A stretch of 64,000 nt of DNA from Candidatus Omnitrophota bacterium (GCA_015233115.1 JADFYJ010000003.1:104536-168535); one strand, 5' to 3'; shown: positions 1,677 through 58,699, counted from the first letter of the stretch. Program-made: numbers and translations. Notes: generated by a model not told the origin, from the letters alone.

Positions 1677-1994
1677 GTAACAGAGTGACAGAGTAACAAA
1701 GTGACAGAGAAAAGGCGAATGTTGAAAAAGGCGATTGATGCTGGAAAAATATCAGACAAAAAATATAAAACACAAAGTTACAAGAAAGATTGGCTATAAA
1801 AAAATATAATAAATATCTAAATTTTTGGCTATTACATTTTAGTTGTTAATTTTTTTGTTTTTTGCTTTGATACTTAGTTGCTCGGTTACCTTGTCACTTA
1901 ACATGCATTATTAGTTTTATGTTATTTGTTTTTAGGTTTTTTTGTTTGGTGTTTTTTTACTTTGTTACTCTGTCACTCTGTTACTCGGTTACTT
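1677..1994 (+). repeat. Intergenic inverted-repeat cassette (GTRACMRA octamer family)
   Basis: L array 1677-1709 AGTAACAGAGTGACAGAGTAACAAAGTGACAGAG + AAAAGGCGAATG; R array 1960-1994 CTTTGTTACTCTGTCACTCTGTTACTCGGTTACTT (reverse complement); AT-rich spacer. Confidence 0.8.
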
Positions 1995-2003
1995 TAAAAA
2001 GTA

Positions 2004-3262
2004 TGTTACAGAACATTAAAGAAATAATTAAAGCCTTGCCCCTGACCAGCGGCGTTTATTTAATGAAGAATGCCGCGGGTGAAATTATTTATATCGGGAA
2101 AGCTGTTTCCCTGCGTAAGCGTGTTCAATCATATTTTCGTCCAGCTTCAGCTGTTTTGAGCAAAACCGACCTTTTGGTCGCGGATATCCGCGACATTGAT
2201 TATATTCCTACGCTGAGTGAGGCCGAAGCCCTTATCCTTGAGGCCGGACTAATAAAAAAACATCAGCCTCGTTACAATATTGATTTGCGGGATGATAAAT
2301 CTTATCCTTTTATTGAAATTACCAAAGAAACTTTTCCGAGGATTATGGTTACCCGTCCGAAGGAAAAGCGGAAAGACGCGGTTTATTATGGGCCGTATGT
2401 CAACGCGGGTTTGGTGAGGGAAGCATTAGGTTTGTTGCGGAAAATTTTTCCGTATTGTAATAAAAAGACCTGCGGGCCGAAAGAATGTTTGGATTTCCAT
2501 TTAGGATTGTGTCCGGGGCCATGCGCGGGCAAGATCTGCGCGAAAGACTATCAAGATAATATTAAGAACATTTGTTTTGTGTTAGACGGAGAAAAGGATC
2601 AGTTATACCGCGGGTTGCAGGGAAAAATGGCAGAGCTGGGCAGCCGCAAAGAATATGAAGAAGCGGCAAAAGTGCGGGACCAGCTGCGCGCGGTGTCAGC
2701 ATTATATTCTGGATCAGCCAATGTTAATTTTTATAAAGAGGCTGAACAATTGCAAAGATTATTGGAATTGCCGAGAATCCCGGAGCGCATCGAGGCTTTT
2801 GATATTTCCAATATTATGGGTGAACAGGCGGTTGGGTCTATGGTGTCATTTTTAAATGGGAGGCCGGACAAGAAAAATTACCGGAGATTTAAAATTAAAA
2901 CAGTGGAAGGGATTGATGATTTTCAGATGATGGCCGAAGTGGTGCACCGCAGGTATAAACGTTTGAAAGAGGAGAAAACTGTTTTTCCGGATTTGATTTT
3001 GGTTGACGGGGGAAAGGGGCAATTGTCAGCGGCTGTGGGGCAATTAAAGATTTTGAACGTGGATGTTCCGATTGCTTCGCTGGCCAAGAAAGCAGAAGAA
3101 ATATTTTTGCCGCGGAAACGAAATCCTGTCAAGTTATCGCCGGAATCATTGGCCTTACAATTATTGCAAAGGATCAGGGATGAGGCCCATAGGTTTGCCG
3201 TAACCTATCATCGTCTAAGGAGAACAAAAAATGCGTTTCGAAATCGCGATGAAAAAACATAA
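2004..3262 (+). CDS. uvrC: UvrC-like excinuclease subunit (GIY-YIG + UVR + endonuclease domains, no C-terminal HhH)
   Basis: GIY-YIG motif SGVYLMKNAAGEIIYIGKA, UVR motif EYEEAAKVRDQLRAV, DISNIMG...LILVDGGKGQL endonuclease region; ends at ...HRFAVTYHRL without the (HhH)2 domain; start 2004 (MLQNIKE) chosen because 1919-2003 is a repeat array. Confidence 0.6.
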
Positions 3263-3536
3263 ATTAACAAAATTTCAATGGCGAGTTTTAGAGGCCGCCC
3301 TTACAATACCGTTAGGCGAGACAAGGACGTATCAATGGGTAGCGGATCAATTGGGAAAACCAAAAGCTGTGCGCGCGGTAGGGCAAGCGTTGCGGCGCAA
3401 TCCATATCCGCTTATCATCCCGTGTCATCGCGTGATTAAAAGCGACGGCCAGCTCGGTGGATACGAAGGTGGCCCGTGCGATAGGAAAGCAGAATTGTTG
3501 GAGATTGAGAAGTATATCGTTAAAGAAATGGAGTAG
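3231..3536 (+). CDS. Methylated-DNA-protein-cysteine methyltransferase C-terminal (DNA-binding) domain protein
   Basis: PCHRVI active-site motif, Ogt/MGMT C-domain-like 101 aa; RBS AAGGAG 8 nt upstream; overlaps uvrC 3' end. Confidence 0.55.
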   Translation: MRFEIAMKKHKLTKFQWRVLEAALTIPLGETRTYQWVADQLGKPKAVRAVGQALRRNPYPLIIPCHRVIKSDGQLGGYEGGPCDRKAELLEIEKYIVKEME

Positions 3537-3539
3537 GGC

Positions 3540-4616
3540 ATGAACATCAGGGAAATGTTTGTAAAAATGGTGAATTTAAAAGCCTCGGATATTTATTTGA
3601 GAATTAAAGCCTATCCGCGGGCAAGAATTAACGGGACGATTGAGGTGATAGGTGATTCGCTGATTACAAGTGAAGAAATGATGAGTTTAACGCATGTGCT
3701 GCTGGGAAATGATGAGCGGCGTAAAATGTTTCAGGAAAAATGGAGTGTGGATTTTATTCATTTTGAGCCGGATATCGGCCGTTTTCGGGTTAATGTATTT
3801 ATGCAGCGGAATACCCCTTCCATTGTGGCCCGGCATGTCTTCGCGGCAGTAGATACTTTTTTTGATTTACATCTGCCGGAAATTGTTTGCAAAAAATTTG
3901 CGGATTTAACCCAAGGGCTATGTTTGGTTTGCGGCCCGGCTGGGAATGGTAAATCCACGACTGTCGCGAGTATCATTGAGCATATTAACCGGAATAAGTC
4001 AAAACATATCATAACGCTGGAAGATCCGATCGAGTTTTTATTCGAAGATAAAAAAGCTTTTATCAATCAGCGGGAGATTGGAAAGGATGTGGCCACATAT
4101 CCGGACGCGCTACGGTCTGTGACTTTGCAGAGCCCGGATATTATTTATATCGGAAATATCCGGGATTATTCGACCATGAAAGCGGCCATTACCGCGACGG
4201 AATTAGGCGCCGGCGTATTTACTACGTTTCATACGGTTAATGCGGTTCAAACAATTATACGGATTATTAATTTTTTTCCGCCGCACTTGCATGATGAAGT
4301 GAGGATGCAATTATCGTTGATTTTAAAAGGTTCCATATCTTTGAGGCTGATACCGCGTAAAGACGGGAAAGGTCGTATCCCGGCGTGTGAAACCTTGGTC
4401 ATCACTCCAACGATTGCTAGGTTAATTCATGAAAATAAAATTAAAGAAATTCAAAATTTTATTGATGAAGGCGCTATGTTTGGTATGTGTTCTTTTCAGC
4501 AGTCTTTAGTGGCTTTGGTAAAAGAGGGATTGGTGGATGTGGATGTAGCCCGGACTTATGCTGACAGCGCGGATGATTTTGATTTGGAAATCAGGGGAAT
4601 CAAAAGAGTTAGATAG
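3540..4616 (+). CDS. pilT: Type IV pilus retraction ATPase PilT family
   Basis: Walker A GPAGNGKSTT, ITLEDPIEF, PilT-type N-terminus ASDIYLRIKAYPRARINGTI; no other pilus genes adjacent. Confidence 0.75.
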   Translation: MNIREMFVKMVNLKASDIYLRIKAYPRARINGTIEVIGDSLITSEEMMSLTHVLLGNDERRKMFQEKWSVDFIHFEPDIGRFRVNVFMQRNTPSIVARHVFAAVDTFFDLHLPEIVCKKFADLTQGLCLVCGPAGNGKSTTVASIIEHINRNKSKHIITLEDPIEFLFEDKKAFINQREIGKDVATYPDALRSVTLQSPDIIYIGNIRDYSTMKAAITATELGAGVFTTFHTVNAVQTIIRIINFFPPHLHDEVRMQLSLILKGSISLRLIPRKDGKGRIPACETLVITPTIARLIHENKIKEIQNFIDEGAMFGMCSFQQSLVALVKEGLVDVDVARTYADSADDFDLEIRGIKRVR

Positions 4617-4617
4617 A

Positions 4618-4668
4618 AGATGTCAGAAGGTCAGAAGTCAGATGTCAGATGTCAGAAGAAAAAGCTTA
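4618..4668 (+). repeat. Unpaired left-type array (GTCAGAAG family) after pilT
   Basis: GTCAGAAGGTCAGAAGTCAGATGTCAGATGTCAGAAG + AAAAAGCTTAGGG. Confidence 0.7.
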
Positions 4669-4693
4669 GGGCGGTTTACGAACCGCCTTTATA
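4669..4693 (+). terminator. Candidate intrinsic terminator after pilT
   Basis: GGCGGTT-TACG-AACCGCC hairpin followed by TTTATAAT; lies just 3' of the GTCAGAAG repeat array. Confidence 0.35.
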
Positions 4694-4900
4694 ATAAAAA
4701 ATGTCGTTGGTTTTTTGCGAAGGTCTTGTTTATATATATATATGTAATTTTTATTTGTAATTAAATTATCATATAAACTATATAATTTGTAAATCAATCC
4801 AACGCCCTGCGTTTCTTTTGTTTTTCATTAATTATAATAATTTAATTGGATCGTAAGTTATTGATAATAAATAATTTATGGTTTTGAGGCGAAATTTTAT

Positions 4901-4929
4901 TTGACCTTAAAAAATGATTTTGATATAGT
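4901..4929 (+). promoter_or_regulatory. Candidate sigma-70/sigma-A promoter for purB
   Basis: TTGACC (4901-4906), 17-nt spacer, TATAGT (4924-4929); GAGGGAAA RBS precedes ATG 4980. Confidence 0.45.
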
Positions 4930-4979
4930 AGTGCGTTCAATAAACTTACCATCCAACCCACAAACCAGAGAGGGAAATT

Positions 4980-6275
4980 ATGTTAGATAGATATACACTA
5001 TCGAAAATGGGGAATATATGGACGGAAAAAAGGAAGTGCGAAATTTTCCTTGAAATTGAAGTGCTGGCTTGTGAGGCAAATTGCAAATTAGGGCATATCC
5101 CCAAAAAATCCTTTGAAAAAATAAAAAAGAACGCGAGTTTTGACATTGAAGAGATCAAACGTTTGGAAGAAAAAACCAAGCACGATGTGGTCGCGTTTAT
5201 CAATAATGTCGGGCAATCATTAGGGACGGATGCTCAATATCTTCATGTGGGTTTAACCTCATCTGATCTATTGGATACAACTTTATCTGTACAGTGCGTG
5301 GAAGCCAGTGAACTGTTGATTGGCAACGTGAAAAAATTACTTTTCGCTTTGAAACAAAAAGCTAAGAAGTATAAAGATACTCCCTGCGTCGCGCGGACTC
5401 ATGGTGTGCACGCTGAACCAACGACCTTTGGTTTAAAGATCGCGGTTTGGTACGATGAAATGAGACGGAATTTAGACCGTTTGGAACAAGCCAAAGAAAT
5501 GATGCGGATCGGAAAATTATCCGGCGCAGTTGGAACTTACGCGAATATTGACCCGTCAGTGGAAGAATTTGTTTGCGAAAAATTAGGCTTGAAACCCGCG
5601 AATATCGCGACGCAAATTATTCAACGCGATCATCATTGTCAATTTATCTCTACGATCGCATTGGTTGGATCAACTTTAAATAAAATTGTCACCGAGATTC
5701 GTTTACTTCAGAAAACCGAAGTGCTGGAGGTGGAAGAGCCATTCTTTAAAGGGCAGGTTGGTTCATCAGCGATGCCTCACAAACGTAACCCGGTCACTTG
5801 TGAACGTATTTCCGGTTTGTCCCGCATTTTACGTTCTAATGCCCAGGCGGCATTTGAAAACATTTGTTTGTGGCATGAACGCGATATCAGCCATTCATCG
5901 GTGGAACGGATTATTATTCCGGATAGCACGATCGCTTTGGATTATATGCTGCAAAAATTGATTCCTTTGATTGAAGGATTATTGGTTTATCCGAAAAATA
6001 TGATCAAGAGTTTAGGGATTACACGCGGACTGATTTATTCTCAGCGTGTTCTGCTTGAATTGATGAAAAAGGGATTAACTCGCGAAGCGGCGTATGATGT
6101 GATTCAACGCTGTGCCATGCAGGTATGGCAGGAAACTTCAGATTTTAAAGAAGTTCTTATGCGCGATCGTCACGTTCGAAAATATCTCAAAGAGTCTGAG
6201 ATCGAATATTGTTTTGATATTAAATATTATACTCGTCATACCGATAAAATTTTTAAACGCGTGGGGTTAAGATAA
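4980..6275 (+). CDS. purB: Adenylosuccinate lyase
   Basis: N-terminus MLDRYTLSKMGNIW and fumarate-lyase signature GSSAMPHKRNP. Confidence 0.85.
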   Translation: MLDRYTLSKMGNIWTEKRKCEIFLEIEVLACEANCKLGHIPKKSFEKIKKNASFDIEEIKRLEEKTKHDVVAFINNVGQSLGTDAQYLHVGLTSSDLLDTTLSVQCVEASELLIGNVKKLLFALKQKAKKYKDTPCVARTHGVHAEPTTFGLKIAVWYDEMRRNLDRLEQAKEMMRIGKLSGAVGTYANIDPSVEEFVCEKLGLKPANIATQIIQRDHHCQFISTIALVGSTLNKIVTEIRLLQKTEVLEVEEPFFKGQVGSSAMPHKRNPVTCERISGLSRILRSNAQAAFENICLWHERDISHSSVERIIIPDSTIALDYMLQKLIPLIEGLLVYPKNMIKSLGITRGLIYSQRVLLELMKKGLTREAAYDVIQRCAMQVWQETSDFKEVLMRDRHVRKYLKESEIEYCFDIKYYTRHTDKIFKRVGLR

Positions 6276-6979
6276 TGGAAAAGCGAAATCGTATTTATGA
6301 AGGCAAAGCCAAGATTGTTTATTTAACTGATGATCCGGATTTGGTTATTCAGTACTTCAAAGACGATGCCACAGCATTCAACGCGGCTAAACGGGGTACT
6401 GTCGCTGAAAAAGGGATTGCGAATAACCGCATTTCTTCCAAAATGTTTGAATACCTTGAATCGAACGGTATTCATACGCATTTTGTGAAACGGTTAAGTG
6501 ACCGGGAAATGCTGATCAAGAAAGTGCAGATAGTGCCGTTGGAAGTAATTATCCGCAATAAAGCGGCAGGAACATTTTGCCGCCGTTATGGCGCGGAAGA
6601 AGGCTTGAAATTAGAGACGACAGTTTTTGAATTGTCATATAAACGTGATGATCTCGGCGATCCCTTGATCAATGAATACCATGCTTTAGCTTTAAAATTA
6701 GCGACTGAAGAAGAGATTAAAAAAATTAAGGACATGACGTTTAAGATCAATGAATTGATGAAAAAATTCTTTGATAATTTGGGTTTGGAATTGATTGATT
6801 TCAAGTTAGAGTTCGGACGATTTAAGGGCGACATTATTTTGGCGGATGAAATATCGCCGGACACTTGCCGCATTTGGGAAAAAGGTACTGGCCGCAAACT
6901 CGACAAAGACCGTTTCCGTCATGATTTAGGCGACATTGAACAGGCGTATCAGGAAGTTTTGAGTAGAATTGAGAAGTAA
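6275..6979 (+). CDS. purC: Phosphoribosylaminoimidazole-succinocarboxamide synthase
   Basis: SAICAR synthetase N-terminus IYEGKAKIVY; start overlaps purB stop (TAATG). Confidence 0.85.
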   Translation: MEKRNRIYEGKAKIVYLTDDPDLVIQYFKDDATAFNAAKRGTVAEKGIANNRISSKMFEYLESNGIHTHFVKRLSDREMLIKKVQIVPLEVIIRNKAAGTFCRRYGAEEGLKLETTVFELSYKRDDLGDPLINEYHALALKLATEEEIKKIKDMTFKINELMKKFFDNLGLELIDFKLEFGRFKGDIILADEISPDTCRIWEKGTGRKLDKDRFRHDLGDIEQAYQEVLSRIEK

Positions 6980-6989
6980 AGTTTAAAAC

Positions 6990-7040
6990 GTGACAATGTA
7001 ATAGTGTAACAATGTGACAATGAAAAAGAGAAAAACGAAG
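6990..7040 (+). repeat. Left-type array (GTGACAATG family) after purC
   Basis: GTGACAATGTAATAGTGTAACAATGTGACAATG + AAAAAGAGAAAAACGAAG; partial inverse copies TTCATTGTCACG (7091-7102) and GCATTGTCACATT (7277-7289) flank structured-element copy B. Confidence 0.7.
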
Positions 7041-7140
7041 AGCAAAATAGAAATATAAATTTTATCTTTTTCACAATCATGTTTTCCTATTTCATTGTCA
7101 CGTTTTAATTCGTTTTGTTAAATTTTTGCGTTTTTAATAA

Positions 7141-7262
7141 AGCGCGCGGCAGGGCGGTTTGCATTTAAACCGAATCCTTCGCTCAAACAGCAGCTCCGAA
7201 GCGGAGCTGAACTCGCTCTGGGATTCGGTTGCAACGCCAACCTTGAGTTTAAGCAAGCGGTT
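7141..7262 (+). repeat. Structured palindromic element, copy B
   Basis: AGCGCGCGGCAGGGCGGTTTGCATTTAAACCGAATCCTTCGCTCAAACAGCAGCTCC-GAAG-CGGAGCTGAACTCGCTCTGGGATTCGGTTGCAACGCCAACC; upstream of purL. Confidence 0.8.
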
Positions 7263-7309
7263 AAAGTGTTTTTTTTGCATTGTCACATTTAACATAAGGA
7301 TTTTAAATT

Positions 7310-10207
7310 ATGCTTTGGCGTATAGAAATATCTCACAAAGAAGGCGTATTTGACGCGGCGGGGGAAGGCGTCACCAAGTCAGCTATTGATTTGGGAATTG
7401 CGTCTATCCGTAAAGTCGAAGTGACCCAGGTGTATACTCTCGATTGTTCCTTGATTCATGATCAGATCGAAACTGTTTGCCGTGAATTATTGTCAGACCC
7501 GGTTACCCAAAAATTTTCGTTTATTCCTCAAAAAGATTTTGTGCCACCCGTCCAAGGGGATGATTTTCAAGTCATAGAGATAGCGTATAATCCTGGCGTT
7601 ATGGATCCGGTGGAATATTCTGTGATCAAAGGAATTCGGGATCTTGGTCTGGGCGAGGTTAAGAGTGTTAAAACCGCGAAGCAATATCAGGTTTGCGGTC
7701 CGGCTCAGCAAGTGCCGATGTTGGTGACAAAAGTGCTGGCTAATAAATTGATACAGCATCAGGTGAATTATGCTGTTTTGCGTCAGGAACATCCTCCTAC
7801 CATGGGCAACGCGGAGCATGAAGTGATTTTAGTTGATTTGATTAAGGCCAATGACAAACAATTGATGAAATTAAGCCAAGACGGCCAATTGTTTCTTAAT
7901 ATCGACGAAATGAAAGCGATTCAGGCGTATTTTAAAAATATCGGCCGCAATCCTACGGATTGTGAGCTGGAAACTGTGGCGCAGACCTGGAGCGAACATT
8001 GTTTTCATAAAACCTTCCGTGGAAATATCGAATTTGAATATACGGACAAAGGGAAAACGAAAAAACGCATTATAAAAAATTTATTAAAATCAACGATCGT
8101 AAAAGCTACGACGGAATTAGATAAAAAATGGTGTGTGTCCGTATTTCACGACAACGCGGGCGTGATTGAATTTGATAAAGATTCGCATGTGTGTTTTAAA
8201 GTGGAAACGCATAATCATCCTTCGGCATTGGAACCGTTTGGCGGCGCTAACACGGGAATCGGCGGAGTGATCCGGGATATTTTAGGAACCGGATTAGGCG
8301 CGAAACCGATTTGTTCAACAGATGTGTTTTGTTTTGCTCCGCCGGATACGGAATGGAAAGATGTGCCGGCTGGCACCCTGCATCCGAAACGGGTGATGAA
8401 AGGTGTGGTCAGCGGAGTGCGGGATTACGGTAATAAAATGGGAATTCCGACAGTGAACGGCGCTATAGTGTTTGATCCATTGTATATCGGCAATCCGTTG
8501 GTTTATTGCGGGAATGTCGGGATCATGCCGAAAAATAAAGTATTAAAAAAGGTTTATAAGGGCGATTGCATTGTTGTCGTAGGCGGGCGAACTGGCCGCG
8601 ATGGGATTCATGGCGCCACTTTTTCATCTGGCGAATTAACCACGCAATCCGAAGTTGTATCGTCCGGAGCAGTGCAGATCGGCGATCCGATTCAGGAGAA
8701 AAAAGTTTTAGACGCGATGTTGATCGCGCGGGATCGCGGCCTTTATTCAGCTGTGACAGATTGCGGCGCAGGCGGTTTATCGAGCGCAGTCGGTGAGATG
8801 GGACAGGAACTGGGCGCGTGGGTTGATCTGGATAAAGTGCCTTTAAAATATACCGGGCTCAATTATGATGAGATTTGGATTTCCGAGTCGCAAGAACGTA
8901 TGGTTTTCAGCGTGCCGGAAAAAAATGTGGATGAGATGCTGAAAGTGTTCGCGTCGGAAAATGTGGAAGCTGTGGTGATCGGATATTTTACCGGCAAAAA
9001 AAAGCTGGAATTATTTTACAAGGAAACACAAGTTTGTGAATTGGACATGGCTTTTTTACATGACGGAAATCCGCGTATTACCAAGAAGGCACAATGGACC
9101 GCGCCGAAATTAAAAATTAAAAAAAGGCCGGCTAAAATTGATTTAAATGAAAAATTGCTGGAAGTCATGGGGCATTATAATATTTGTTCCAAAGAATGGG
9201 TGATCCGGCAGTATGACCATGAAGTGCAGGGCGGCAGTATTATCAAGCCGTTGGTCGGGCCGCAGTGTGACGGGCCGTCGGACGCGAGTGTGATTACGCC
9301 GAAACTGGGGTCGAAAAAAGGGCTTGCGATTTCTAACGGGATTAATCCGCGTTACAGCATGGTTGATCCATACTGGATGGCGGGCGCGTGCATTGATGAA
9401 GCAGTCCGGCAGATTGTCTGCGTGGGCGGGGCGGTTGACCGCATCGCGATTTTGGATAATTTTTGCTGGGGCAATCCGGATAAGCCGGATCGGTTAGGCT
9501 CTTTGGTCCGCGCCGCTGAAGGGTGTTATAAATTCGCGGTAGCTTATGGTGTGCCGTTTATTTCCGGTAAAGATAGTTTGTACAACGAATACGCGCAAAA
9601 TAAAAAGACTATCGCGATCCCCGGGACGCTTTTGATTTCCGCCATCGGTATTGTTGAGGATGTGACCAAAACTGTGACCATGAATTTTAAAAAACCCGGC
9701 AGTTTGATTTATGCTGTGGGCCTCACTCAGGATGAATTGGGCGGTTCAGTTTATTTGGACACGTTGGGAGACCTTGGTGTTGATGTGCCAAAGGTTAATC
9801 CAAAGCAAGCCATGAAAACATTTAAAGCTTTAAACCAGGCCGTATCAAAAGGGTTAGTGAATGCCATGCATGATTGTTCAGACGGCGGTTTGGCGGTTAC
9901 GCTCGCGGAAATGGCGTTTGGTGGAAAATTAGGGGTGACCGCGCGCTTGGATTACGTGCCGTATCGCGGTACAGACAAACGGGATGACACCATTTTGTTT
10001 TCCGAGACAGCATCAAGATTTGTGGCAGAAGTATTGCCTGAAAATAAAAAGGCATTTGAAGCAGCGTTAAAAGGGGTGCCATGCAAAGTGATTGGCAAGG
10101 TCGAGAGCACTCCGGAATTTGTGATTTATGGGCTTAAACATAATGTGGTGGTTAACCTTTTTATCCAAGACCTTTGTGAGGCTTGGAAACAACCCTTAAG
10201 GTGGTAA
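7310..10207 (+). CDS. purL: Phosphoribosylformylglycinamidine synthase, PurS-PurL fusion
   Basis: 965 aa; N-terminal ~80 aa PurS-like, then FGAM synthase II core (AIR-synthase-like repeated domains, GDPIQEKK). Confidence 0.85.
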   Translation: MLWRIEISHKEGVFDAAGEGVTKSAIDLGIASIRKVEVTQVYTLDCSLIHDQIETVCRELLSDPVTQKFSFIPQKDFVPPVQGDDFQVIEIAYNPGVMDPVEYSVIKGIRDLGLGEVKSVKTAKQYQVCGPAQQVPMLVTKVLANKLIQHQVNYAVLRQEHPPTMGNAEHEVILVDLIKANDKQLMKLSQDGQLFLNIDEMKAIQAYFKNIGRNPTDCELETVAQTWSEHCFHKTFRGNIEFEYTDKGKTKKRIIKNLLKSTIVKATTELDKKWCVSVFHDNAGVIEFDKDSHVCFKVETHNHPSALEPFGGANTGIGGVIRDILGTGLGAKPICSTDVFCFAPPDTEWKDVPAGTLHPKRVMKGVVSGVRDYGNKMGIPTVNGAIVFDPLYIGNPLVYCGNVGIMPKNKVLKKVYKGDCIVVVGGRTGRDGIHGATFSSGELTTQSEVVSSGAVQIGDPIQEKKVLDAMLIARDRGLYSAVTDCGAGGLSSAVGEMGQELGAWVDLDKVPLKYTGLNYDEIWISESQERMVFSVPEKNVDEMLKVFASENVEAVVIGYFTGKKKLELFYKETQVCELDMAFLHDGNPRITKKAQWTAPKLKIKKRPAKIDLNEKLLEVMGHYNICSKEWVIRQYDHEVQGGSIIKPLVGPQCDGPSDASVITPKLGSKKGLAISNGINPRYSMVDPYWMAGACIDEAVRQIVCVGGAVDRIAILDNFCWGNPDKPDRLGSLVRAAEGCYKFAVAYGVPFISGKDSLYNEYAQNKKTIAIPGTLLISAIGIVEDVTKTVTMNFKKPGSLIYAVGLTQDELGGSVYLDTLGDLGVDVPKVNPKQAMKTFKALNQAVSKGLVNAMHDCSDGGLAVTLAEMAFGGKLGVTARLDYVPYRGTDKRDDTILFSETASRFVAEVLPENKKAFEAALKGVPCKVIGKVESTPEFVIYGLKHNVVVNLFIQDLCEAWKQPLRW

Positions 10208-10211
10208 AATT

Positions 10212-10916
10212 ATGGTCGAGTCTAAGTTGGCTAAGAAAGTACCTGATTTTCAGATGGAAGATCCCTGGCGTGTATTTCGTATTATGTCAGAATTTGTTTA
10301 TGGATTTGAGCATTTGTCCATGCTGGGGCCGGCTGTCACGGTATTTGGTTCGGCGAGGACAAAAAGCGAAGATAAAATGTATAAATTAGCGGAAAAGGTA
10401 TCCAAGCAATTAGCGGAAAAAGGTTATACGATAATTACCGGCGGAGGCCCGGGCATTATGGAAGCCGGAAATAAAGGCGCTTGCGAGGGCGGCGGCATTT
10501 CTGTGGGCTTAAATATTGAACTTCCGTTTGAACAAAAACCAAATCCTTATATCAACCACTTGGTCAATTTTCATTACTTCTTTTGCCGAAAAGTGATGTT
10601 TTTAAAATACGCGTGGGCCGTTATTATTTTCCCCGGCGGTTATGGGACTATGGATGAGCTGTTTGAATGTTTGACTTTGGTGCAGACGGAGCGTATTGAG
10701 ACTGTGCCGGTTATTTTTATGGGTCGGGATTTTTGGACCGGACTTATTAGCTGGATGGATGAACAACTGGTGGGGAATCAGAAGATCGAAGCCAAGGATC
10801 TGAAAGTGTTTAACGTGGTCGACACGGCTGAAGAAGCTGTTCTTATAGTCGATAAATTTTGTAAGCAAGAAGCAAAACGCAGAAAAATCAAAAAAAGCAC
10901 ATGGAAAAACATATAA
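10212..10916 (+). CDS. LOG-family protein (TIGR00730 Rossmann fold; nucleotide 5'-monophosphate nucleosidase-like)
   Basis: Motifs GGGPGIMEAGNKGA and PGGYGTMDELFE; embedded between purL and purQ. Confidence 0.7.
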   Translation: MVESKLAKKVPDFQMEDPWRVFRIMSEFVYGFEHLSMLGPAVTVFGSARTKSEDKMYKLAEKVSKQLAEKGYTIITGGGPGIMEAGNKGACEGGGISVGLNIELPFEQKPNPYINHLVNFHYFFCRKVMFLKYAWAVIIFPGGYGTMDELFECLTLVQTERIETVPVIFMGRDFWTGLISWMDEQLVGNQKIEAKDLKVFNVVDTAEEAVLIVDKFCKQEAKRRKIKKSTWKNI

Positions 10917-11734
10917 AAGTTTTAGTCCTGCGCACAGCAGGCACAAATTGCAACGGTGAAATGGCCAATGCTTTTGAGCATTTTGGCGCTCAAGTGGACC
11001 AGGTTCATATCAAGCGCTTGCGTCAGCATGAAATTTTGCTGAAGGATTATCATATTTTAGCTATTCCCGGCGGATTTACTTACGGCGATGATATTGAATC
11101 AGGCCGGATTTTGGCTAATGAATTGCGCTTGCATCTGGGAAAAGATTTGGCTCAATTTATTCAGGATAAAAAATTGATTATCGGCATATGCAACGGATTT
11201 CAGATTTTAGTTAAAGCGGGAATATTGCCCGGAAATTTGGATAAAGGACAATCTTCCATGGAAGAAGGATTTAAGCAGTCTTCGACTTTGACGAATAATG
11301 ATTCCGGAAAATTTGAAGATCGTTGGACTTATTTGAAGGTTGCCGGCGAAAGTGTATGGACGAAAAATTTATCGCCTGTCGTATATTTTCCGGTCGCGCA
11401 CGCGGAAGGCAAATTTATTCCCATGAGTGAGGACGTATTACAGGGATTAAAGCATAATCAGCAGATCGCGTTTACTTATTGTTCGGCTCAGGGAGGAGAG
11501 CCTGTTTATCCGGAAAACCCCAATGGATCGACTCTGCATATCGCGGGCATTACAGATGTGACTGGGAGGATCTTAGGCTTGATGCCGCATCCGGAACGCC
11601 ATTTTTATTTTGAAAACAGTCCTAATTGGAATGGACAGGCTAAAAAAAATAAATTAGGCGATGGCGCGCAGATTTTTAAAAATGGCGTGGAGTACGTGCG
11701 CAATACTTTATTAAGTAACCGAGTAACCGAGTGA
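10901..11734 (+). CDS. purQ: Phosphoribosylformylglycinamidine synthase glutaminase subunit
   Basis: KVLVLRTAGTNCNGE, catalytic GICNGFQIL, HPER; last codons (LSNRVTE-TGA) lie inside the GTAACCGA repeat array. Confidence 0.8.
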   Translation: MEKHIKVLVLRTAGTNCNGEMANAFEHFGAQVDQVHIKRLRQHEILLKDYHILAIPGGFTYGDDIESGRILANELRLHLGKDLAQFIQDKKLIIGICNGFQILVKAGILPGNLDKGQSSMEEGFKQSSTLTNNDSGKFEDRWTYLKVAGESVWTKNLSPVVYFPVAHAEGKFIPMSEDVLQGLKHNQQIAFTYCSAQGGEPVYPENPNGSTLHIAGITDVTGRILGLMPHPERHFYFENSPNWNGQAKKNKLGDGAQIFKNGVEYVRNTLLSNRVTE

Positions 11735-12037
11735 CAGAGAAAAAGCGTTTGGTGTAAAAAAAGCCGATGCGAGATAACAATAAAAAACGACTGCAAAAAG
11801 TAATAATCAATACTTAAGAGCAGAGACTAGTAATTTTTTCTGAAAAGTGTTTTAATGACATCCATTTTTATAATTTAGTTTATATTGTTATAAATTTATC
11901 GAATTTTTTTGTTATTGTTTTTTTTCGTCTATTTGTTTTAACTTTTTATTTTTAAATTTTATGTTTTTAAATAGCATTTTATTTTTTTGTTTTTACTCTG
12001 TTACTTGGTTACTCGGTTACTCGGTTACTCTGTCACT
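11714..12037 (+). repeat. Intergenic inverted-repeat cassette (GTRACMRA family), purQ-purM
   Basis: L 11714-11739 AGTAACCGAGTAACCGAGTGACAGAG + AAAAAGCGTTTGG; R 11993-12037 TACTCTGTTACTTGGTTACTCGGTTACTCGGTTACTCTGTCACTT. Confidence 0.8.
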
Positions 12038-12063
12038 TAACTGTAATGATTAAAGGAATTTCT

Positions 12064-13068
12064 ATGACTACCAGTATTACATATAAAACCAGCGGTGTAG
12101 ATATTGATAAGGCCAATCAATTTGTCGATAATATTGGGACGCATGTGAAAAGTACGTTTGTGAAAGGCGTGATGACCCGAAAGGGGTCATTCGGCGCTTT
12201 GTTTGGGCTGGATACTAAAAAATATAAAGAGCCGGTTATGGTGTCCTCGACAGATGGGGTTGGAACGAAACTACTGATTGCCAAAGCATTGAACAAGCAT
12301 GATACTGTCGGCATTGATCTCGTGGCTATGAATGTGAATGATATTTTGTGTGTCGGCGCAAAGCCCTTGTTCTTTTTGGATTATATCGCGTGCGGTAAAG
12401 TTGATGTTAAGATTTTGACGGATGTGGTTAAGGGAATTGCGGATGGCTGCCGTCAATCAGGGTGCGCTTTAATCGGTGGAGAAACCGCGGAAATGCCGGG
12501 GATGTACGCGGCGGATGATTATGATTTGGCTGGATTTACCGTGGGCGTGGTTGAGAAAGCTAAGATTGTGGATGGTTCGAAAATTAAAGCCGGAGATGTT
12601 TTATTCGGATTGCCTTCTACCGGCGCGCATTCGAACGGATATTCTATGGTGCGAAAAGTTTTGTCTTTGTCTGACATGAAAAAGATGAGGGACGCGGTTT
12701 TGGCGCCCACAAAAATATATGCCAAGGAAGTGGAAGCGGCGTGTGCGAAGTTTAATGTGAAGGGGATGGCGCATATTACCGGCGGCGCGTATTATGAAAA
12801 ATTGCCTCGAATATTGCCTAAGGGTTTGTGCGCGAAGGTGAATACGTCCAGTTGGGATGTGCCAGAGCTATTTAAAATGATTCAGAAAAAAGGCAATGTG
12901 GCCAAGAGTGAGATGTATCGCACATTTAATATGGGTATTGGGTATGTGTTTGTGATCGCTAAAAAAGACGCGGAGCAATTTGGCAAATTTTTGAAAGCGA
13001 AAAAAATTGTGTATCATATTATTGGTGAAGTTATTAAAGATAGTAAACAAAGGGTTATTTTAGAGTAA
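12064..13068 (+). CDS. purM: Phosphoribosylformylglycinamidine cyclo-ligase (AIR synthase)
   Basis: SGVDIDKANQFV..., AIR synthase fold; start 12064 chosen (AAAGGA RBS 6 nt upstream) over ORF-track 12046. Confidence 0.85.
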   Translation: MTTSITYKTSGVDIDKANQFVDNIGTHVKSTFVKGVMTRKGSFGALFGLDTKKYKEPVMVSSTDGVGTKLLIAKALNKHDTVGIDLVAMNVNDILCVGAKPLFFLDYIACGKVDVKILTDVVKGIADGCRQSGCALIGGETAEMPGMYAADDYDLAGFTVGVVEKAKIVDGSKIKAGDVLFGLPSTGAHSNGYSMVRKVLSLSDMKKMRDAVLAPTKIYAKEVEAACAKFNVKGMAHITGGAYYEKLPRILPKGLCAKVNTSSWDVPELFKMIQKKGNVAKSEMYRTFNMGIGYVFVIAKKDAEQFGKFLKAKKIVYHIIGEVIKDSKQRVILE

Positions 13069-13329
13069 CCAAGTAACCAAGTAACCGAGTAACCGAGTGA
13101 CAGAGAAAAAGCGGTTGGATTGAGAAATTAATAAATAAAAACTACGGGAAAAATAAAAAATTTAGAACAAGAGAAGCAGATAAAAAATGTGTGATTTTGT
13201 TGGTTTATTGGCATTAAATTTTATGCTTTATCGTTGTTAATGTGTTGTGCTGTTACGGTTTTTTTATTTTTTTAGCATTCGTTTTTTGTTTTTACTTTGT
13301 TACTCGGTTACTTGGTTACTCTGTCACTT
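13064..13329 (+). repeat. Intergenic inverted-repeat cassette (GTRACMRA family), purM-purD
   Basis: L 13064-13105 (GTAACCAA x2, GTAACCGA x2, GTGACAGA) + AAAAAGCGGTTGG; R 13295-13329 CTTTGTTACTCGGTTACTTGGTTACTCTGTCACTT; right side also has CATTCGTTTTTT (reverse complement of box variant). Confidence 0.8.
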
Positions 13330-13347
13330 AATGATTAAAGGATTTAT

Positions 13348-14634: not shown

Positions 14635-14655
14635 TATGTGTGATTCATTCTGTAA

Positions 14656-14782
14656 GGCGCGCGGTAGGGCGGTTTGCATTTAAACCAAATCATTCGCTCA
14701 AACAGCAGCTCCTAAGCGGAGCTGAACTCGCTCGGTGATTCGGTTTAAACACAAACCTTGTGTATGGGGCACGCGGTTTGGA
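14656..14782 (+). repeat. Structured palindromic element, copy C
   Basis: Same family; apex CAGCTCC-TAAGC-GGAGCTG; upstream of purE. Confidence 0.8.
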
Positions 14783-14836
14783 GATGTACGCGAAGATTAA
14801 TGATTACAGGAAATATTTGAAGATAGAGGAGGGCGT

Positions 14837-15325
14837 ATGGGCGACATCAAAGTGGCTGTACTTATGGGAAGTAAGAATGACCTGACTATTATGGAGGACA
14901 CGATTAAAACTTTGAAGGAGTTTGGGGTCGGGTATGAAGCCAAAGTTCTGTCCGCGCACCGCACTCCTAAGGAAACAGTGGATTACGCGGAAAAATTAAA
15001 AAACCGCGGAGTTAAGGTGGTTATTTGCGGGGCAGGCGCTTCAGCGGCTTTGGCTGGTACAGTGGCTGCGCATACTGATCTTCCCGTATTTGGAGTGCCA
15101 ATTGACGCGACTTGTTTTCATGGCTGGGACGCGTTATTATCAACTGTTCAAATGCCGCCAGGAGTTCCGGTCGCGGCTTTAGGGGTCGGAAAAATGGGAG
15201 CTAAAAATGCGGCTTTGATGGCGTTACGAATTTTAGCTTTACAGGATGTTAAGATAGCTGATAAGTTAGGAGTATTTAAAGAAGAACAGCGTAAGAGTAT
15301 TCTGGATACTCAGATTGATCTGTGA
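14837..15325 (+). CDS. purE: N5-CAIR mutase / AIR carboxylase catalytic subunit
   Basis: VAVLMGSKNDL...LSAHRTP PurE signature; GAGGAGGG RBS. Confidence 0.85.
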   Translation: MGDIKVAVLMGSKNDLTIMEDTIKTLKEFGVGYEAKVLSAHRTPKETVDYAEKLKNRGVKVVICGAGASAALAGTVAAHTDLPVFGVPIDATCFHGWDALLSTVQMPPGVPVAALGVGKMGAKNAALMALRILALQDVKIADKLGVFKEEQRKSILDTQIDL

Positions 15326-16380: not shown

Positions 16381-16381
16381 G

Positions 16382-16569: not shown

Positions 16570-16585
16570 TGTCGAAAGGAATATT

Positions 16586-17038: not shown

Positions 17039-17041
17039 TTA

Positions 17042-43612: not shown

Positions 43613-43696
43613 CGAAAAAACTAAGGCTTGAAAAACAACCGAAACCAAACTAAAAATTGATAACTAAAATTTTAAATTCATGGTAAAATTTTTTTA

Positions 43697-45369: not shown

Positions 45370-45420
45370 TATGCCCTAATTCCGGATTAGAAGTATGAAT
45401 TAGGGCAGTAGGTCGGGCGT

Positions 45421-45577
45421 GGTATGTAGTATGTAGAAAAAACGAATGATTTAAAAAAATAACAATCAAAAATTCTCAATACTAATATAAGATTTTCATT
45501 TACGTTTTTTGATTTTGCATTTATTTAATTTTTACGATTTTTTTGCCACATGTTATATGCTACATACTACATGTTAT
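45421..45577 (+). repeat. Intergenic inverted-repeat cassette (GTATGTN family) between CIRCE and hrcA
   Basis: L 45421-45436 GGTATGTAGTATGTAG + AAAAAACGAATGA; R 45545-45577 GCCACATGTTATATGCTACATACTACATGTTAT. Confidence 0.7.
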
Positions 45578-46936: not shown

Positions 46937-47062
46937 AAGCGCGCGGTAGGGCGGTTAGCATTTAAACCAAATCATTCGCTCAAACAGCAGCTCCTAAGCG
47001 GAGCTGAACTCGCTCGGTGATTTGGTTTCAACGCAAACCTTCTGTAGGGGGCACGCGGGTTG
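46937..47062 (+). repeat. Structured palindromic element, copy E
   Basis: Same family; between grpE and dnaK. Confidence 0.8.
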
Positions 47063-47109
47063 AAGATGTGTATGAAAATTTAGGGTTTTTGTTTTTTGTT
47101 TAGTTTTTT

Positions 47110-47382
47110 ACTTTGTTACTCTGTTACTCGGTTACTTTGTTACTTAATGATTACAGGAAATATATGAAGATAGAGTAGGGGGCACGCGGGTTGAGGATGT
47201 ACGCGATAAAAAATATAGATAATATGTTAAAGAAGATGATGGCTTTTGTAGAAAAATTGACTTAGTTTTTTTGTTTAATAATCTTAGCTTTAAATTTTTA
47301 GTTTTTGATTTTTTGTATTTGATTTTGTATAGCTTTTTTACGTTTTTACTCTGTCACTCGGTTACTTGGTTACTCTGTTACT
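47110..47382 (+). repeat. Two right-type GTRACMRA arrays in the mosaic grpE-dnaK spacer
   Basis: 47110-47145 CTTTGTTACTCTGTTACTCGGTTACTTTGTTACTT and 47346-47382 TTTACTCTGTCACTCGGTTACTTGGTTACTCTGTTACT; between them 47146-47205 copies the purE leader (TTAATGATTACAGGAAATAT.TGAAGATAGAG...GGGGCACGCGG.TTG.GGATGTACGCG, cf. 14766-14835). Confidence 0.7.
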
Positions 47383-50504: not shown

Positions 50505-50606
50505 GTCGTAGGGGCGATCTCCTGATCGCCCGTTAAAAAATTAGCGCTTTTGTTTTTTGGTTTTGCTTTTGCTTTGTTACTCTGTTACTTGGTTACTCTG
50601 TTACTA
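50505..50606 (+). repeat. Solo GC-rich hairpin element plus right-type GTRACMRA array upstream of FmdB-family gene
   Basis: 50505-50536 GTCGTAGGGGCGATCTCCTGATCGCCCGTTAA; 50571-50606 CTTTGTTACTCTGTTACTTGGTTACTCTGTTACT. Confidence 0.7.
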
Positions 50607-50913: not shown

Positions 50914-51269
50914 GAAAATTTCTCAGTTTTTGGTTCCCTGTCCTGCTTTATTCTGCTATTATCTTTGCTGCTTCATCAATACAGAATGTCGCACTGCCTG
51001 GGAGCGTTCCTAATTTTGATAAAGTATTGCATATTGGGGAATATGTTGTTTTGGGCTTATTGTTAGCTAGGGCGTTGAATAGCATAGAGTTTAAGCTTTC
51101 CTTAAAACAGATTTGGCTATTGGCAGCAGTGCTTTGTTTTATTTACGGCTTAACCGATGAATGGCATCAATCATTTGTTCCTGGGAGAACAGCAGATATA
51201 TGGGATGCCATAGCTGATTTCATTGGCGGTGGTTTGGGGGGGTGGATATGGCTTTTTATCAAGAGGTAA
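50901..51269 (+). CDS. VanZ-family membrane protein
   Basis: FPVLLYSAIIFAASS, DEWHQSFVPGRTADIWD; probable TTG start overlapping the FmdB-family gene. Confidence 0.5.
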   Translation: MLQIRKFLSFWFPVLLYSAIIFAASSIQNVALPGSVPNFDKVLHIGEYVVLGLLLARALNSIEFKLSLKQIWLLAAVLCFIYGLTDEWHQSFVPGRTADIWDAIADFIGGGLGGWIWLFIKR

Positions 51270-51273
51270 TCGT

Positions 51274-51300
51274 GGTAAAGGTTGTAAAAGAACCTGCGAT
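51274..51300 (+). repeat. Unpaired left-type array (GGTAAAG family) after VanZ gene
   Basis: GTGGTAAAGGTTGTAAAAG + AACCTGCGATTGATAGAAAAACGATCGG. Confidence 0.5.
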
Positions 51301-53621: not shown

Positions 53622-53702
53622 TGGTTGCTTTTGATCAGTGTTGTGTATAAATTATAGATTGTAATTATATTAATCGTTTTTGCATTGTTACGTTTTTAAT
53701 AA

Positions 53703-53826
53703 AGCGCGTGGGTAGGGCGGTTGGCATTTAAACCAAATCCTTCGCTCAAACAGCAGCGACTCGGCGTCGCTGAACTCGCTCGGGGATTCGGTTTTAACGC
53801 CAACCTTGAGTATGGGCACGCGGTTA
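53703..53826 (+). repeat. Structured palindromic element, copy G
   Basis: Apex CAGCGAC-TCGGC-GTCGCTG; arms GGTTGGCATTT... / ...AACGCCAACC co-vary; upstream of ABC ATPase gene. Confidence 0.8.
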
Positions 53827-53848
53827 CCAGATTTGCTTTGCAGTTTTT

Positions 53849-56269: not shown

Positions 56270-56470
56270 GCATGTAGTATGTGGTATGTCGTATGTGGTG
56301 AAAAAGCCGTTGTTGAAAATCGATAGGTGTAGTGAAGGATGTGACAGTAGGCAGTAAAAAAATATAAAATAAAGATAAAATTTTTTTAAGAATTTTGGGC
56401 TAGAATTATTTGTGAATGTTTTTTATTTTTCGGTTTTTCTACATGCCACATACTACATACGACATACTAG
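56270..56470 (+). repeat. Intergenic inverted-repeat cassette (GTATGTN family) between the two GGDEF genes
   Basis: L 56270-56300 GCATGTAGTATGTGGTATGTCGTATGTGGTG + AAAAAGCCGTTG; R 56439-56470 CTACATGCCACATACTACATACGACATACTAG. Confidence 0.8.
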
Positions 56471-57519: not shown

Positions 57520-57642
57520 GAACTGTTTGAAAACGCCCATCTGCGGCGTTATTCTCTCGTTCGCTTGTGCGGCGTACTTACTGCTGTACGCCTCCGCGTT
57601 CACTCGGGAATGCCTTGCATCTGGGCATTTTGAAACAGTTCC
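57520..57642 (+). ncRNA. Candidate structured RNA element (closed ~123-nt domain) between GGDEF gene and glucokinase
   Basis: GAACTGTTTGAAAACGCCCA (57520-57539) pairs 18/20 with TGGGCATTTTGAAACAGTTC (57623-57642); internal GGCGTAC-TTACTGCT-GTACGCC hairpin; visibly more GC-rich than flanks. Confidence 0.35.
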
Positions 57643-57681
57643 ACTATAATCTTACCTTTTATATAATTAATAAAACAATTA

Positions 57682-57710
57682 TTGAATGACGAGTACATAT
57701 CATGTAAAAT
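57682..57710 (+). promoter_or_regulatory. Candidate promoter for glucokinase gene
   Basis: TTGAAT (57682-57687), 17-nt spacer, TAAAAT (57705-57710) with TG immediately upstream. Confidence 0.35.
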
Positions 57711-57748
57711 GCTCAAAATATAAAAAAGTGATTATTATTATGAATAAG

Positions 57749-58699
57749 TATTATATTGGTATTGATGTGGGCGGGACAAATATTAAGTTTGGACTGCTTA
57801 ACGAATCCGGAACGATTATCGCTAGAAATCGTTTATCAACAGTGAGTTGCGCTTCTTCTAAAAAAAAGCTTATCAATGCTCTTACCGGTATTATCCATCA
57901 GTTAATGAATGAAAATAATTTAAAAAACAATCAAATGGCAGGAATAGGATTTGGTTTACCGGGACTCATTGATGCTGAAGCTGGTGAGGTCAAGATATTA
58001 ACGAATATTTTTGGCTGGAAAAATGTTCCGCTCAAGAAAATGATGGAGGATGCCACAGGTATTCCTACTTTCATAGATAATGATGTTAATGTGATTACTT
58101 TGGGAGAATGGAAATACGGGGCAGGACGGGGTTATGACAATTTGGTGTGTATTACAGTTGGTACAGGTGTGGGCGGAGGGTTAATTTTAAACGGGGAGAT
58201 CTATCGCGGTCCCGGCTTTACTGCTGGAGAAATTGGACATATTCCATTAAATGAAAAAGGGCCGGCTTGCAATTGCGGAGGTTCTGGATGTCTAGAAGCG
58301 TATGTGGGGAATCGTCATTTGATTGCCAAAGCTGCTAAGCTTTTTAAAAATAAAAATATTCGATTGGAAGATGTATCAGAATTGGCGAAAAAAGAAAATT
58401 CCCGGGCTATTGAATTTTGGGAAGAAGCTGGCTTTCATATAGGTATGGGTTTAGTGAGCGTGATTAATGTTTTAAATCCCCAGTTAATTGTGATCGGCGG
58501 TGGAGTTTCGAATGGCCTGCCATTTATGAAAAAATCATTAGAAAAAACGATTCAAAGCAGGGCTATGAAGATTCCGGCTGGTATGGTCAAAATTGTAAAA
58601 GCCAAGCTGGGCGATGACGCGGGATTAATTGGGGCAATGGTACTTGTTAAAAGTCAGAAGGTCAGAAGTCAGAAGTCAGAAGAAAAAACGATTGGTTAG
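57749..58699 (+). CDS. ROK-family glucokinase
   Basis: YYIGIDVGGTNIKFGLL, CNCGGSGCLEAYV zinc motif; C-terminal 15 aa (SQKVRSQKSEEKTIG) encoded by the GTCAGAAG repeat array. Confidence 0.75.
   Translation, partial: YYIGIDVGGTNIKFGLLNESGTIIARNRLSTVSCASSKKKLINALTGIIHQLMNENNLKNNQMAGIGFGLPGLIDAEAGEVKILTNIFGWKNVPLKKMMEDATGIPTFIDNDVNVITLGEWKYGAGRGYDNLVCITVGTGVGGGLILNGEIYRGPGFTAGEIGHIPLNEKGPACNCGGSGCLEAYVGNRHLIAKAAKLFKNKNIRLEDVSELAKKENSRAIEFWEEAGFHIGMGLVSVINVLNPQLIVIGGGVSNGLPFMKKSLEKTIQSRAMKIPAGMVKIVKAKLGDDAGLIGAMVLVKSQKVRSQKSEEKTIG
58651..58693 (+). repeat. Left-type array (GTCAGAAG family) + conserved box, inside glucokinase 3' coding end
   Basis: GTCAGAAGGTCAGAAGTCAGAAGTCAGAAG + AAAAAACGATTGG, all translated in frame. 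Confidence 0.7.

Follow-up and report, generated by a model that had tools for sequence, protein, structure and literature searches.

The window analysed here, 64 kb of a single metagenome-assembled genome of Candidatus Omnitrophota, carries approximately 49 open reading frames (ORFs) that we take as genes, all on the plus strand; this count omits shorter minus-strand ORFs nested inside plus-strand genes. The GC skew is about +0.2 throughout. The 39 products scanned against Pfam belong to the usual housekeeping set (pur genes, glyA, nrdR, cca, miaA, hrcA-grpE-dnaK-dnaJ, and others), and the PurD product (13348-14634) is 100% identical to NCBI MBF0478343.1, the next best homologue sharing 70% identity. 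The window contains no tRNAs, and Rfam gives no match anywhere in it at gathering score. Nearly every second gene junction holds a hairpin-forming cassette of 100–300 nt bounded by arrays of short tandem repeats. We studied these arrays together with a 13-base sequence that follows many of the left ones, hereafter the box, with the consensus AAAAAGCGATTGG (also written A4-6-(G)CG-A-W-T-G-G). The box is real, positional, and lineage-specific, and it is not universal.

The 17 left arrays are purine-rich, lie 3′ of plus-strand genes, and all have the same orientation. Each comprises three to six units of 7–8 nt from one of the families AGTRACNR, GTATGTN, AATGTGAC, AGAWGTC, GGTAAAG-like, and ATAGGTG. 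Tandem Repeats Finder and periodicity scans recover intergenic tandem units of 7–8 nt in at least three copies, which qualifies the arrays, though not the box, as simple-sequence arrays. The stop codon of the upstream gene often falls within the first repeat unit. A TAA, TAG, or TGA is present in the 7- or 8-nt units, so that three of them close all reading frames. A complete cassette runs from the stop codon through the left array, the A-run and box, an A-rich half (A = 0.50), a T-rich half (T = 0.57), and a T-run to the right array. The right array is the reverse complement of its left partner and belongs to the same family, so that the two form an inverted pair (that is, terminal inverted repeats are present), with each arm a direct tandem array of 7–8 nt units and not a palindrome. 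The spacer is poor in C on the sense strand (C 0.085 and 0.071, G 0.19 and 0.13 in its two halves). By inspection, mostly 16–19 nt containing a ribosome-binding site separate the right array from the next start codon. Ten or 11 of the left arrays belong to complete cassettes and the remainder to half-cassettes. The complete cassettes are as follows.

13064-13329, + strand, worked example, with left array, box, A-rich half, T-rich half, T-run, and right array
1676-1993, + strand, complete cassette
11714-12037, + strand, complete cassette
16382-16569, + strand, complete cassette
17042-17292, + strand, complete cassette
18566-18667, + strand, complete cassette
19559-19745, + strand, complete cassette
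39676-39929, + strand, complete cassette
45418-45570, + strand, complete cassette
56272-56469, + strand, complete cassette

The initial annotation had listed eleven boxes and one reverse-complement copy. All of them are present, with three coordinates displaced by 2–8 nt (36613, 38731, and 58681, corrected to 36621, 38736, and 58683). It had also placed a box after every left array; we find one 0–8 nt after approximately 12 of the 17, with a second, degenerate copy 15–17 nt downstream in about six cassettes. The boxes, with their scores, and the left arrays that have an A-run only are listed below.

1710-1738, + strand, tandem boxes AAAAGGCGAATGT (1710) and AAAAGGCGATTGA (1726) after AGTRACNR array 1676-1709; 13.5 and 14.2 bits
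11740-11770, + strand, box AAAAAGCGTTTGG and degenerate copy AAAAAGCCGATGC (11758) after AGTRACNR array 11714-11739; 16.2 and 11.3 bits
13106-13118, + strand, box AAAAAGCGGTTGG after AGTRACNR array 13064-13105; 16.0 bits
13275-13287, - strand, mirror box, reading GCATTCGTTTTTT on the + strand, just inside right array 13292-13329
17076-17088, + strand, box AAAAAGTGATTGG 8 nt past AGTRACNR array 17042-17068; 13.9 bits
19593-19605, + strand, box AAAAGGCGAATGG after GTATGTN array 19559-19589; 15.8 bits
36621-36633, + strand, box AACAAGCGATTGG after GGTAAAG-like array 36579-36620, a half-cassette without right array; 15.4 bits
38736-38748, + strand, box-like GAAAAGCGAATTG after ATAGGTG array 38710-38734; 14.3 bits
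39709-39721, + strand, weak box GCAAAACGATTTA after AGTRACNR array 39676-39709; 9.1 bits
45437-45449, + strand, box AAAAAACGAATGA after short GTATGTN array 45418-45435; 15.7 bits
51291-51318, + strand, two boxes, AACCTGCGATTGA (51291) and GAAAAACGATCGG (51306, 13.4 bits), after GGTAAAG-like array 51266-51290, a half-cassette
56301-56327, + strand, box AAAAAGCCGTTGT and weak copy GAAAATCGATAGG after GTATGTN array 56272-56299; 11.1 and 8.9 bits
58683-58695, + strand, best box, AAAAAACGATTGG, after AGAAGTC array 58651-58682, a half-cassette; 17.1 bits
4659-4671, + strand, A-run only (AAAAAGCTTAGGG) after AGAWGTC array 4618-4658, then a GC hairpin (GGGCGGTT..AACCGCC) instead of a box
16408-16420, + strand, A-run only, without CG-AWTG, after GTATGTN array 16382-16406
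from 7030, + strand, A-run only, without CG-AWTG, after array 6985-7026
from 18599, + strand, A-run only, without CG-AWTG, after array 18566-18598
from 43615, + strand, A-run only, without CG-AWTG, after array 43571-43614

The box is thus common to five array families, as had been claimed (AGTRACNR, GTATGTN, AGAAGTC, GGTAAAG-like, and ATAGGTG), and the AATGTGAC family lacks a good one. The claim for every left array fails at the five arrays with an A-run but no CG-AWTG, and it is weakened by the poor copy at 39709 and by the location of the 38736 copy inside the miaA ORF. The latter encodes E-K-R-I-V ahead of the P-loop and may be a coincidence of ordinary coding sequence.

Some arrays furnish the ends of proteins. 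The AGTRACNR array at 11714-11739 includes the stop codon of its upstream gene, the purM stop codon is the first TAA of the array at 13064-13105, and a ROK-family ORF continues through the AGAAGTC array and its box to a TAG at 58697-58699. At the first of these arrays, the GATase_5 gene extends 2.5 units into the repeats (11714-11734). The array at 38710-38734 overlaps the miaA start, where its unit supplies a Shine-Dalgarno-like AGGTGA and a GTG start at 38721, and purD (14626-14634) and glyA (18563-18571) both end in ..G-M-stop encoded by the array unit GGTATGTAG.

Several statistics separate the box from its A-rich surroundings. Allowing up to two mismatches, AAAAAGCGATTGG occurs 14 times in the window against 5.9 ± 2.7 expected; all 14 matches are on the plus strand, and seven directly follow an array. 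A de novo motif search of the 30 nt 3′ of the 17 left arrays returns A-A-A-A-A-G-C-G-A-W-T-G-G at 221 bits, compared to 152 ± 7.6 bits for shuffles of the same flanks (z = 9.2), and the same search in A-rich interior windows yields a far weaker motif. Scored with a leave-one-out position weight matrix, the post-array sites have a median of 10.0 bits versus 4.1 bits for A-rich interior windows (Mann-Whitney p = 0.001). Within the window, the box is therefore much stronger than an A-rich background would produce. Matrix matches across the 64 kb are concentrated behind arrays: at 13 bits or more, 11 of the 12 plus-strand matches are post-array and one lies in coding DNA, and at 14 bits or more all eight are post-array. 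In 1.56 Mb of other loci, none of the 26 matches of at least 14 bits lies behind a periodic array. These numbers leave very little room for a chance product of A-rich composition beside arrays, to which the 50% A content of the left halves and the five flanks with an A-run only might be attributed.

The box is specific to one strand and to one end of the cassette. A CG lies within 12–16 nt of the left array in 11–12 of 16 cases (p ~1e-4 relative to interior CG density), which counts further against chance, and this conserved CG sits in otherwise CG-poor surroundings. Beside the right arrays a CG is found in 5–7 of 16 cases and is not enriched (p = 0.15–0.27). There the T-run inside the right arrays mirrors the A-run, but the CG-AWTG part is unmirrored. 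The reverse-complement box reported near right arrays exists as a strong copy at 13275, the sole minus-strand match of at least 12 bits in the window, and nowhere else is it strong. In the half-cassettes at 36621, 51291, and 58683, the right arm is missing and the box is nevertheless retained.

Syntenic relatives with the same gene order (L001, GCA_015233195.1; L239, GCA_042571725.1; and L241) show what these junctions look like when the cassettes are absent. The purQ-purM, sua5-rpiB, rpiB-glyA, glyA-nrdR, and BFN-cca gene pairs overlap or are separated by at most 25 nt in the relatives, versus cassettes of 112–311 nt here, and the cassettes are therefore lineage-specific additions inside operons. 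The purM-purD junction is compact (overlapping) in L241 only, whereas it measures 166 nt in L001 and holds an extra gene in L239. The purD-purE junction of the window, 202 nt compared to at most 12 nt in the relatives, contains no cassette; it holds an array remnant and a copy of a 135-nt hairpin element described below. In 21 kb of L001 we count one array, which lacks a box, and L240 (GCA_043812495.1) has different repeats and a Y1 transposase. The latter is a 325-aa protein of the IS200/IS605 type encoded at 11291-12871 between purD and purE, with GGGGTCAGGTCTCGACTTGACGACATG repeats on its flanks.

Comparison of the cassettes with one another places the box at the edge of what they share. 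Interiors of different cassettes display no homology (mean z = 0.6 over 36 pairs) and no palindromic signal beyond composition (z ~0). The left termini of cassettes c11735 and c13069, however, are identical over 35 nt through GAGAAAAAGCG (..GAGTGACAGAGAAAAAGCG), similar over the TTGG, and unrelated beyond it; because homology ends there, the box forms the inner boundary of a conserved left terminus. Their right ends are similar from the array via the ribosome-binding site to the ATG. The initial annotation had argued that a box shared across families implies a common function at this end of the cassette; the retention of the box at the homology edge, next to diverged interiors, supports a shared constraint there.

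To our reading of the promoter and terminator landscape, the cassettes probably lie within polycistronic RNA. In positions 1-20000 of the window, neither sigma-70-like promoters (51 versus 44 ± 6.5 expected) nor terminator-like sites (24 versus 22 ± 5) are enriched, and both are nearly absent from cassette interiors, apart from the known purB promoter; that promoter (TTGACC-17-TATAGT) was detected by the scan and is conserved in L001 and L240. Since the cassettes are insertions in compact operons and promoters and terminators are not enriched, co-transcription with the flanking genes is the simplest expectation.

Folding of whole cassettes as sense-strand RNA pairs the left and right arrays with z-scores of -3.9 to -5.8. 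The predicted arm duplexes have 28–48 pairs and thus exceed the approximately 20 bp of double-stranded RNA that serves as a criterion for RNase III-processed intercistronic hairpins. In all 11 cassettes folded, the plus-strand RNA is more stable than the minus-strand RNA, and its arm duplexes contain 46 G-U pairs compared to 14. Because the spacer is C-poor on the sense strand, its A-rich and U-rich halves can zip together through A-U and G-U pairs in the sense RNA only. In six of eight complete cassettes (in the worked example, 13106-13118 with 13275-13287), partition-function folding predicts at high probability that AAAA(G)CG, the first part of the box, pairs with the U-run plus CG/UG beside the right array; it finds no consistent partner for AWUGG. 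These strand asymmetries are suggestive of a role at the RNA level.

We tentatively read the box as a conserved sequence at the inner edge of the 5′ (left) arm in lineage-specific cassettes inserted between co-transcribed genes of compact operons. On an equally tentative footing, it may function in the RNA as a junction or recognition motif, located where an intercistronic processing or stability stem ends on its inner side. Of the functions named in the initial annotation, a protein-binding or RNA-cleavage site at that end of the helix is thus plausible and the one we prefer. The purine-rich left array would pair with the pyrimidine-rich right array into a helix of 28–48 bp, looping out 100–250 nt of C-poor spacer and bringing the upstream stop codon beside the downstream ribosome-binding site. 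This helix would be prolonged by the box, whose A-run and CG would find partners in the U-run (and CG or UG) on the inner side of the right array, and the left-specific A-W-U-G-G would come to lie where helix meets spacer. In that position a protein, of which an endoribonuclease or RNA-binding protein is the most plausible kind, could recognise it by sequence, and this, together with RNase III-type cutting of the long duplex, might allow individual cistrons to be processed or stabilised. The box is more than an extension of the helix, because half-cassettes without a partner arm keep it, and since A-W-T-G-G is left-specific and retained across array families as well as in those half-cassettes, a sequence-specific reader of one strand would be expected. 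A perfect-to-wobble duplex of 28–48 bp is an expected RNase III substrate in most bacteria. Correia elements, which are co-transcribed intergenic inverted-repeat elements bound and cleaved by RNase III, provide a precedent (PMC2649163).

Several observations weigh against an RNA-level role. The five of 17 left arrays that lack a box indicate that some cassettes can dispense with it, and the cassette folds contain no conserved local secondary structure around AWUGG. The advantage of the plus-strand RNA and its excess of G-U pairs could equally stem from a genome-wide depletion of C, visible as the GC skew. We infer co-transcription, cleavage, and binding alike from the DNA of one 64-kb stretch of one genome, for which we found no close relative with the same cassettes.

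Omnitrophota are uncultured and the control of their gene expression is little known. A box that survives where the surrounding sequence has diverged would, if it is a processing or binding signal, offer a 13-nt handle on how their operons are organised post-transcriptionally. It would also bear on the long-unexplained heptamer and octamer intergenic arrays of cyanobacteria, Beggiatoaceae, Bacteroidota, and Planctomycetota. A bolder version, which we regard as unlikely, is that the cassettes constitute an undescribed operon-embedded “intervening sequence” whose box is read by a dedicated protein that excises or marks the spacer RNA or, alternatively, propagates the cassette. Under that equally unlikely scenario, arms of interchangeable repeat arrays would loop out a C-poor spacer, long polycistronic transcripts would become individually tuned units through the action of the protein, and, given the inverted arrays and the post-array box of other phyla described below, the system could be widespread.

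The alternative that survives best, although we consider it doubtful, treats array and box as the DNA-level left terminus of a non-autonomous element resembling MITEs (miniature transposable elements with inverted repeats) or REPINs, recognised or cut by a transposase or recombinase encoded elsewhere. Such cassettes might be tolerated at gene junctions since they supply stops in all frames, are C-poor, and leave the ribosome-binding site intact, a corollary that we hold to be just as doubtful. The cassettes are indeed insertions relative to compact syntenic operons, with conserved termini, unrelated interiors, and arrays in inverted orientation whose stop-bearing units shut all frames within three copies. 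A block that includes the ribosome-binding site, AATGATTA[AC]AGGA, is found at four places, one full mirror of the box exists at 13275, and Y1 transposases occur in the phylum (L240). A symmetric form of the transposition end proposed earlier is nonetheless disfavoured. At right ends the box is generally unmirrored, being left- and sense-specific, and all 17 arrays share one orientation. Inspection revealed no consistent direct repeat that would represent a target-site duplication; the TTAA or TTA that borders some AGTRACNR arrays could just as well belong to the inverted repeat. The interiors lack the homology that is evident among copies of the 135-nt hairpin element in the same window, and a Pfam scan of 39 of the approximately 49 window proteins turned up no transposase. 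Moreover, varied array families next to a constant box are the opposite of what transposase-specific terminal inverted repeats would predict. Were the box a transposition end after all, it would define a mobile element adapted to life inside operons.

Among known intergenic elements, Correia (CREE/NEMIS) elements of Neisseria and ERIC/IRU elements are, like the cassettes, small, non-coding, and intergenic, with inverted ends and long hairpins, and MITEs of this type are co-transcribed with neighbouring genes and bound or cleaved by RNase III (PMC2649163; PMC2229807, PMC10969869). CREE, however, exist in many homologous copies and show terminal inverted repeats of a fixed 26 bp, an IHF site within a conserved core, and a TA duplication, whereas the cassettes have 7–8 nt array arms of several families, unrelated interiors, a one-sided box, and no duplication that we could see. 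REP/BIME and REPIN-RAYT systems resemble them in placing abundant extragenic units inside operons as inverted pairs around a spacer, and proposals for them include mobile DNA as well as stabilisation of mRNA (PMC3116915, PMC3337134). Yet REP units are short, imperfectly palindromic, very similar from copy to copy, and accompanied by a RAYT gene, unlike the direct tandem arrays and non-homologous interiors seen here, and no RAYT (Y1 transposase) was found among the 39 scanned window proteins. The cassettes appear to work like co-transcribed MITEs or BIME/REPINs, yet they fall outside these classes because of their non-homologous interiors, array arms in place of palindromes, and one-sided box; nor did we see a target duplication on inspection. 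RNase III stems flanking rRNAs, rRNA intervening sequences, and the early intercistronic sites of phage T7 also consist of long helices with a looped-out segment, cleavage of which separates units of the transcript; these are individually evolved hairpins, not arrays, and we know of no comparable shared sequence box described for the rRNA and T7 sites.

Somewhat less credible is the idea that the box is a non-functional remnant, in which an array-plus-box block from one ancestor has been homogenised by gene conversion or template switching between arms or cassettes; in a variant of this idea, the box might be a degenerate array unit, AGCGATTG resembling AGTGACTG. The perfect 35-nt identity of the left termini of c11735 and c13069 suggests recent conversion, the tandem second boxes, which about six cassettes carry at +15 to +17 nt, suggest processes of the slippage type, and units like AGCGATTG occur inside a Vibrio octamer array (L063). 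Five unrelated array families carry the box, however, and conversion seeded by the arrays cannot move it across families. Its retention in half-cassettes, the full divergence of the adjoining interior, and the conservation of a CG within a CG-poor context are also difficult to reconcile with a passive remnant.

A transcription signal is improbable. The A-run followed by TTGNNN could be viewed as an A-tract or UP-like element with a -35-like TTG directing transcription into the spacer, and TATAAT-like hexamers occur near the A-to-T switch of some cassettes, but there is no consistent -10 at 16–18 nt past the TTG, with one weak match at 1722. The box could otherwise represent the A-tract and 5′ half-stem of an intrinsic terminator, as the array at 4618-4658, with its AAAAAGC, GC hairpin, and T-rich tail, would imply. 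No GC-rich hairpin with a U-tract is found at or after the box in complete cassettes, however, and promoter- and terminator-like sites are scarce there even though the scan recovers the real purB promoter.

Other candidates were discarded. An ECF-type promoter (GTAAC-N17-CGA) fits, by eye, the AGTRACNR family only and cannot explain a family-independent box. Reading W-T-G by eye as the ATG or TTG start of a small ORF gives frames of 2–26 codons with no common peptide and no proper Shine-Dalgarno spacing, and a -1 frameshift site (A-AAA-AAG) would meet no in-frame ribosome, as the arrays close all frames upstream. IHF, CsrA, and Hfq (ARN)n sites match poorly by eye. The strand skew of sub-words expected of a Chi-like or architecture-imparting oligomer just mirrors the general purine skew.

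Our literature search found no description of the cassette architecture or of the box, and the architecture, which is striking, is apparently under-described. Closest to the arrays are the TAACTGA repeats of Beggiatoaceae, Cyanobacteria, and Bacteroidetes, the cyanobacterial STRR, and “long simple sequence repeats”, which are likewise tandem 7–8 nt intergenic units near start or stop codons (PMC4679880). The array unit AGTAACTG is TAACTGA plus one base. The function of the heptamer arrays is given as unknown, with post-transcriptional roles proposed, and the abstract and introduction of that work describe neither inverted arms paired across a spacer nor a conserved box behind the arrays (PMC4679880).

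In a scan of species-representative genomes, AGTRACNR arrays occur at more than 117 loci of many phyla. The taxa (loci L002-L118) include Bacteroidota, Phycisphaerales, Calditrichota, Gastranaerophilales, Cloacimonadota, and even Streptomyces and Vibrio. Where such arrays are paired outside the window, the purine arm comes first in 18 cases versus one, both strands being counted. Inverted octamer arrays led by the purine arm are also seen in Planctomycetota, Bacteroidota, and other phyla. CGAWTG follows AGTRACNR arrays of other phyla six times against 2.5 expected, a marginal excess too weak to call. A metagenome scan with GTRACNGAGAAAARGCG, a pattern too short for this purpose, returned apparent chance matches in the 120 stretches examined, mostly in apparent coding DNA and none preceded by an array. 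The Phycisphaerales genome SLDM01 carries nested (GGCACGRA)n(AGTGACGR)n inverted pairs with a post-array motif of its own, GAAGGGGTGGGTG, at two to three of six loci.

The window holds further repeats besides the cassettes. The hairpin element of approximately 135 nt is present in five copies, listed below together with the GC-rich inverted arms.

7128-7262, + strand, ~135-nt hairpin element
14664-14790, + strand, ~135-nt hairpin element
21216-21370, + strand, ~135-nt hairpin element
46937-47075, + strand, ~135-nt hairpin element
53696-53830, + strand, ~135-nt hairpin element
32056-32185, GC-rich 30-nt inverted arms (CGTCGTAGGGGCGATCTCCCGATCGCCCGT) around a T-rich, then A-rich spacer
50509-50537, GC-rich 30-nt arm of the same kind

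The layout of the 135-nt element is GCGCGCGG-TAGGGCGGTTTGCATTTAAACCAAATC..CTCAAACAGC-stem-loop-GAACTCGCTC..GATTCGGTTT..GGCACGCG. The apical stem of one copy shows a compensatory change, a different copy is lengthened by a 35-nt insertion, and Rfam has no match for the element; a related CTCAAACAGC motif lies at 9835-10000 of L001. The sequence GTGATTGGTTTAAA at 17080 resembles the 3′ arm of this element (GGTGATTCGGTTTAAAC), which could be chance. The GC-rich arm at 50509 stands alone and is combined with a right array of AGTRACNR type (50575-50605); the two sides of this hybrid cassette are unable to pair.

Short modules also recur between genes. The block AATGATTA[AC]AGGA is found at 12045, 13330, 14799, and 47146, after right arrays or upstream of purE, and the region upstream of purE (14760-14836) reappears, with its order permuted, at 47146-47205, pointing to recombination among intergenic modules. 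In several cassettes, a TTGGCT or TGGC motif is found close to the A-to-T switch (for example, at 1797, 1827, 16466, and 56397). Elsewhere, 23357-30376 encodes a 2339-aa protein in which a HAD-hydrolase domain alone is recognised (residues ~670–910), the remainder being unannotated, and a 32-nt tandem repeat of two copies containing TTGGCTTAATTATGGC lies at 30398-30461.

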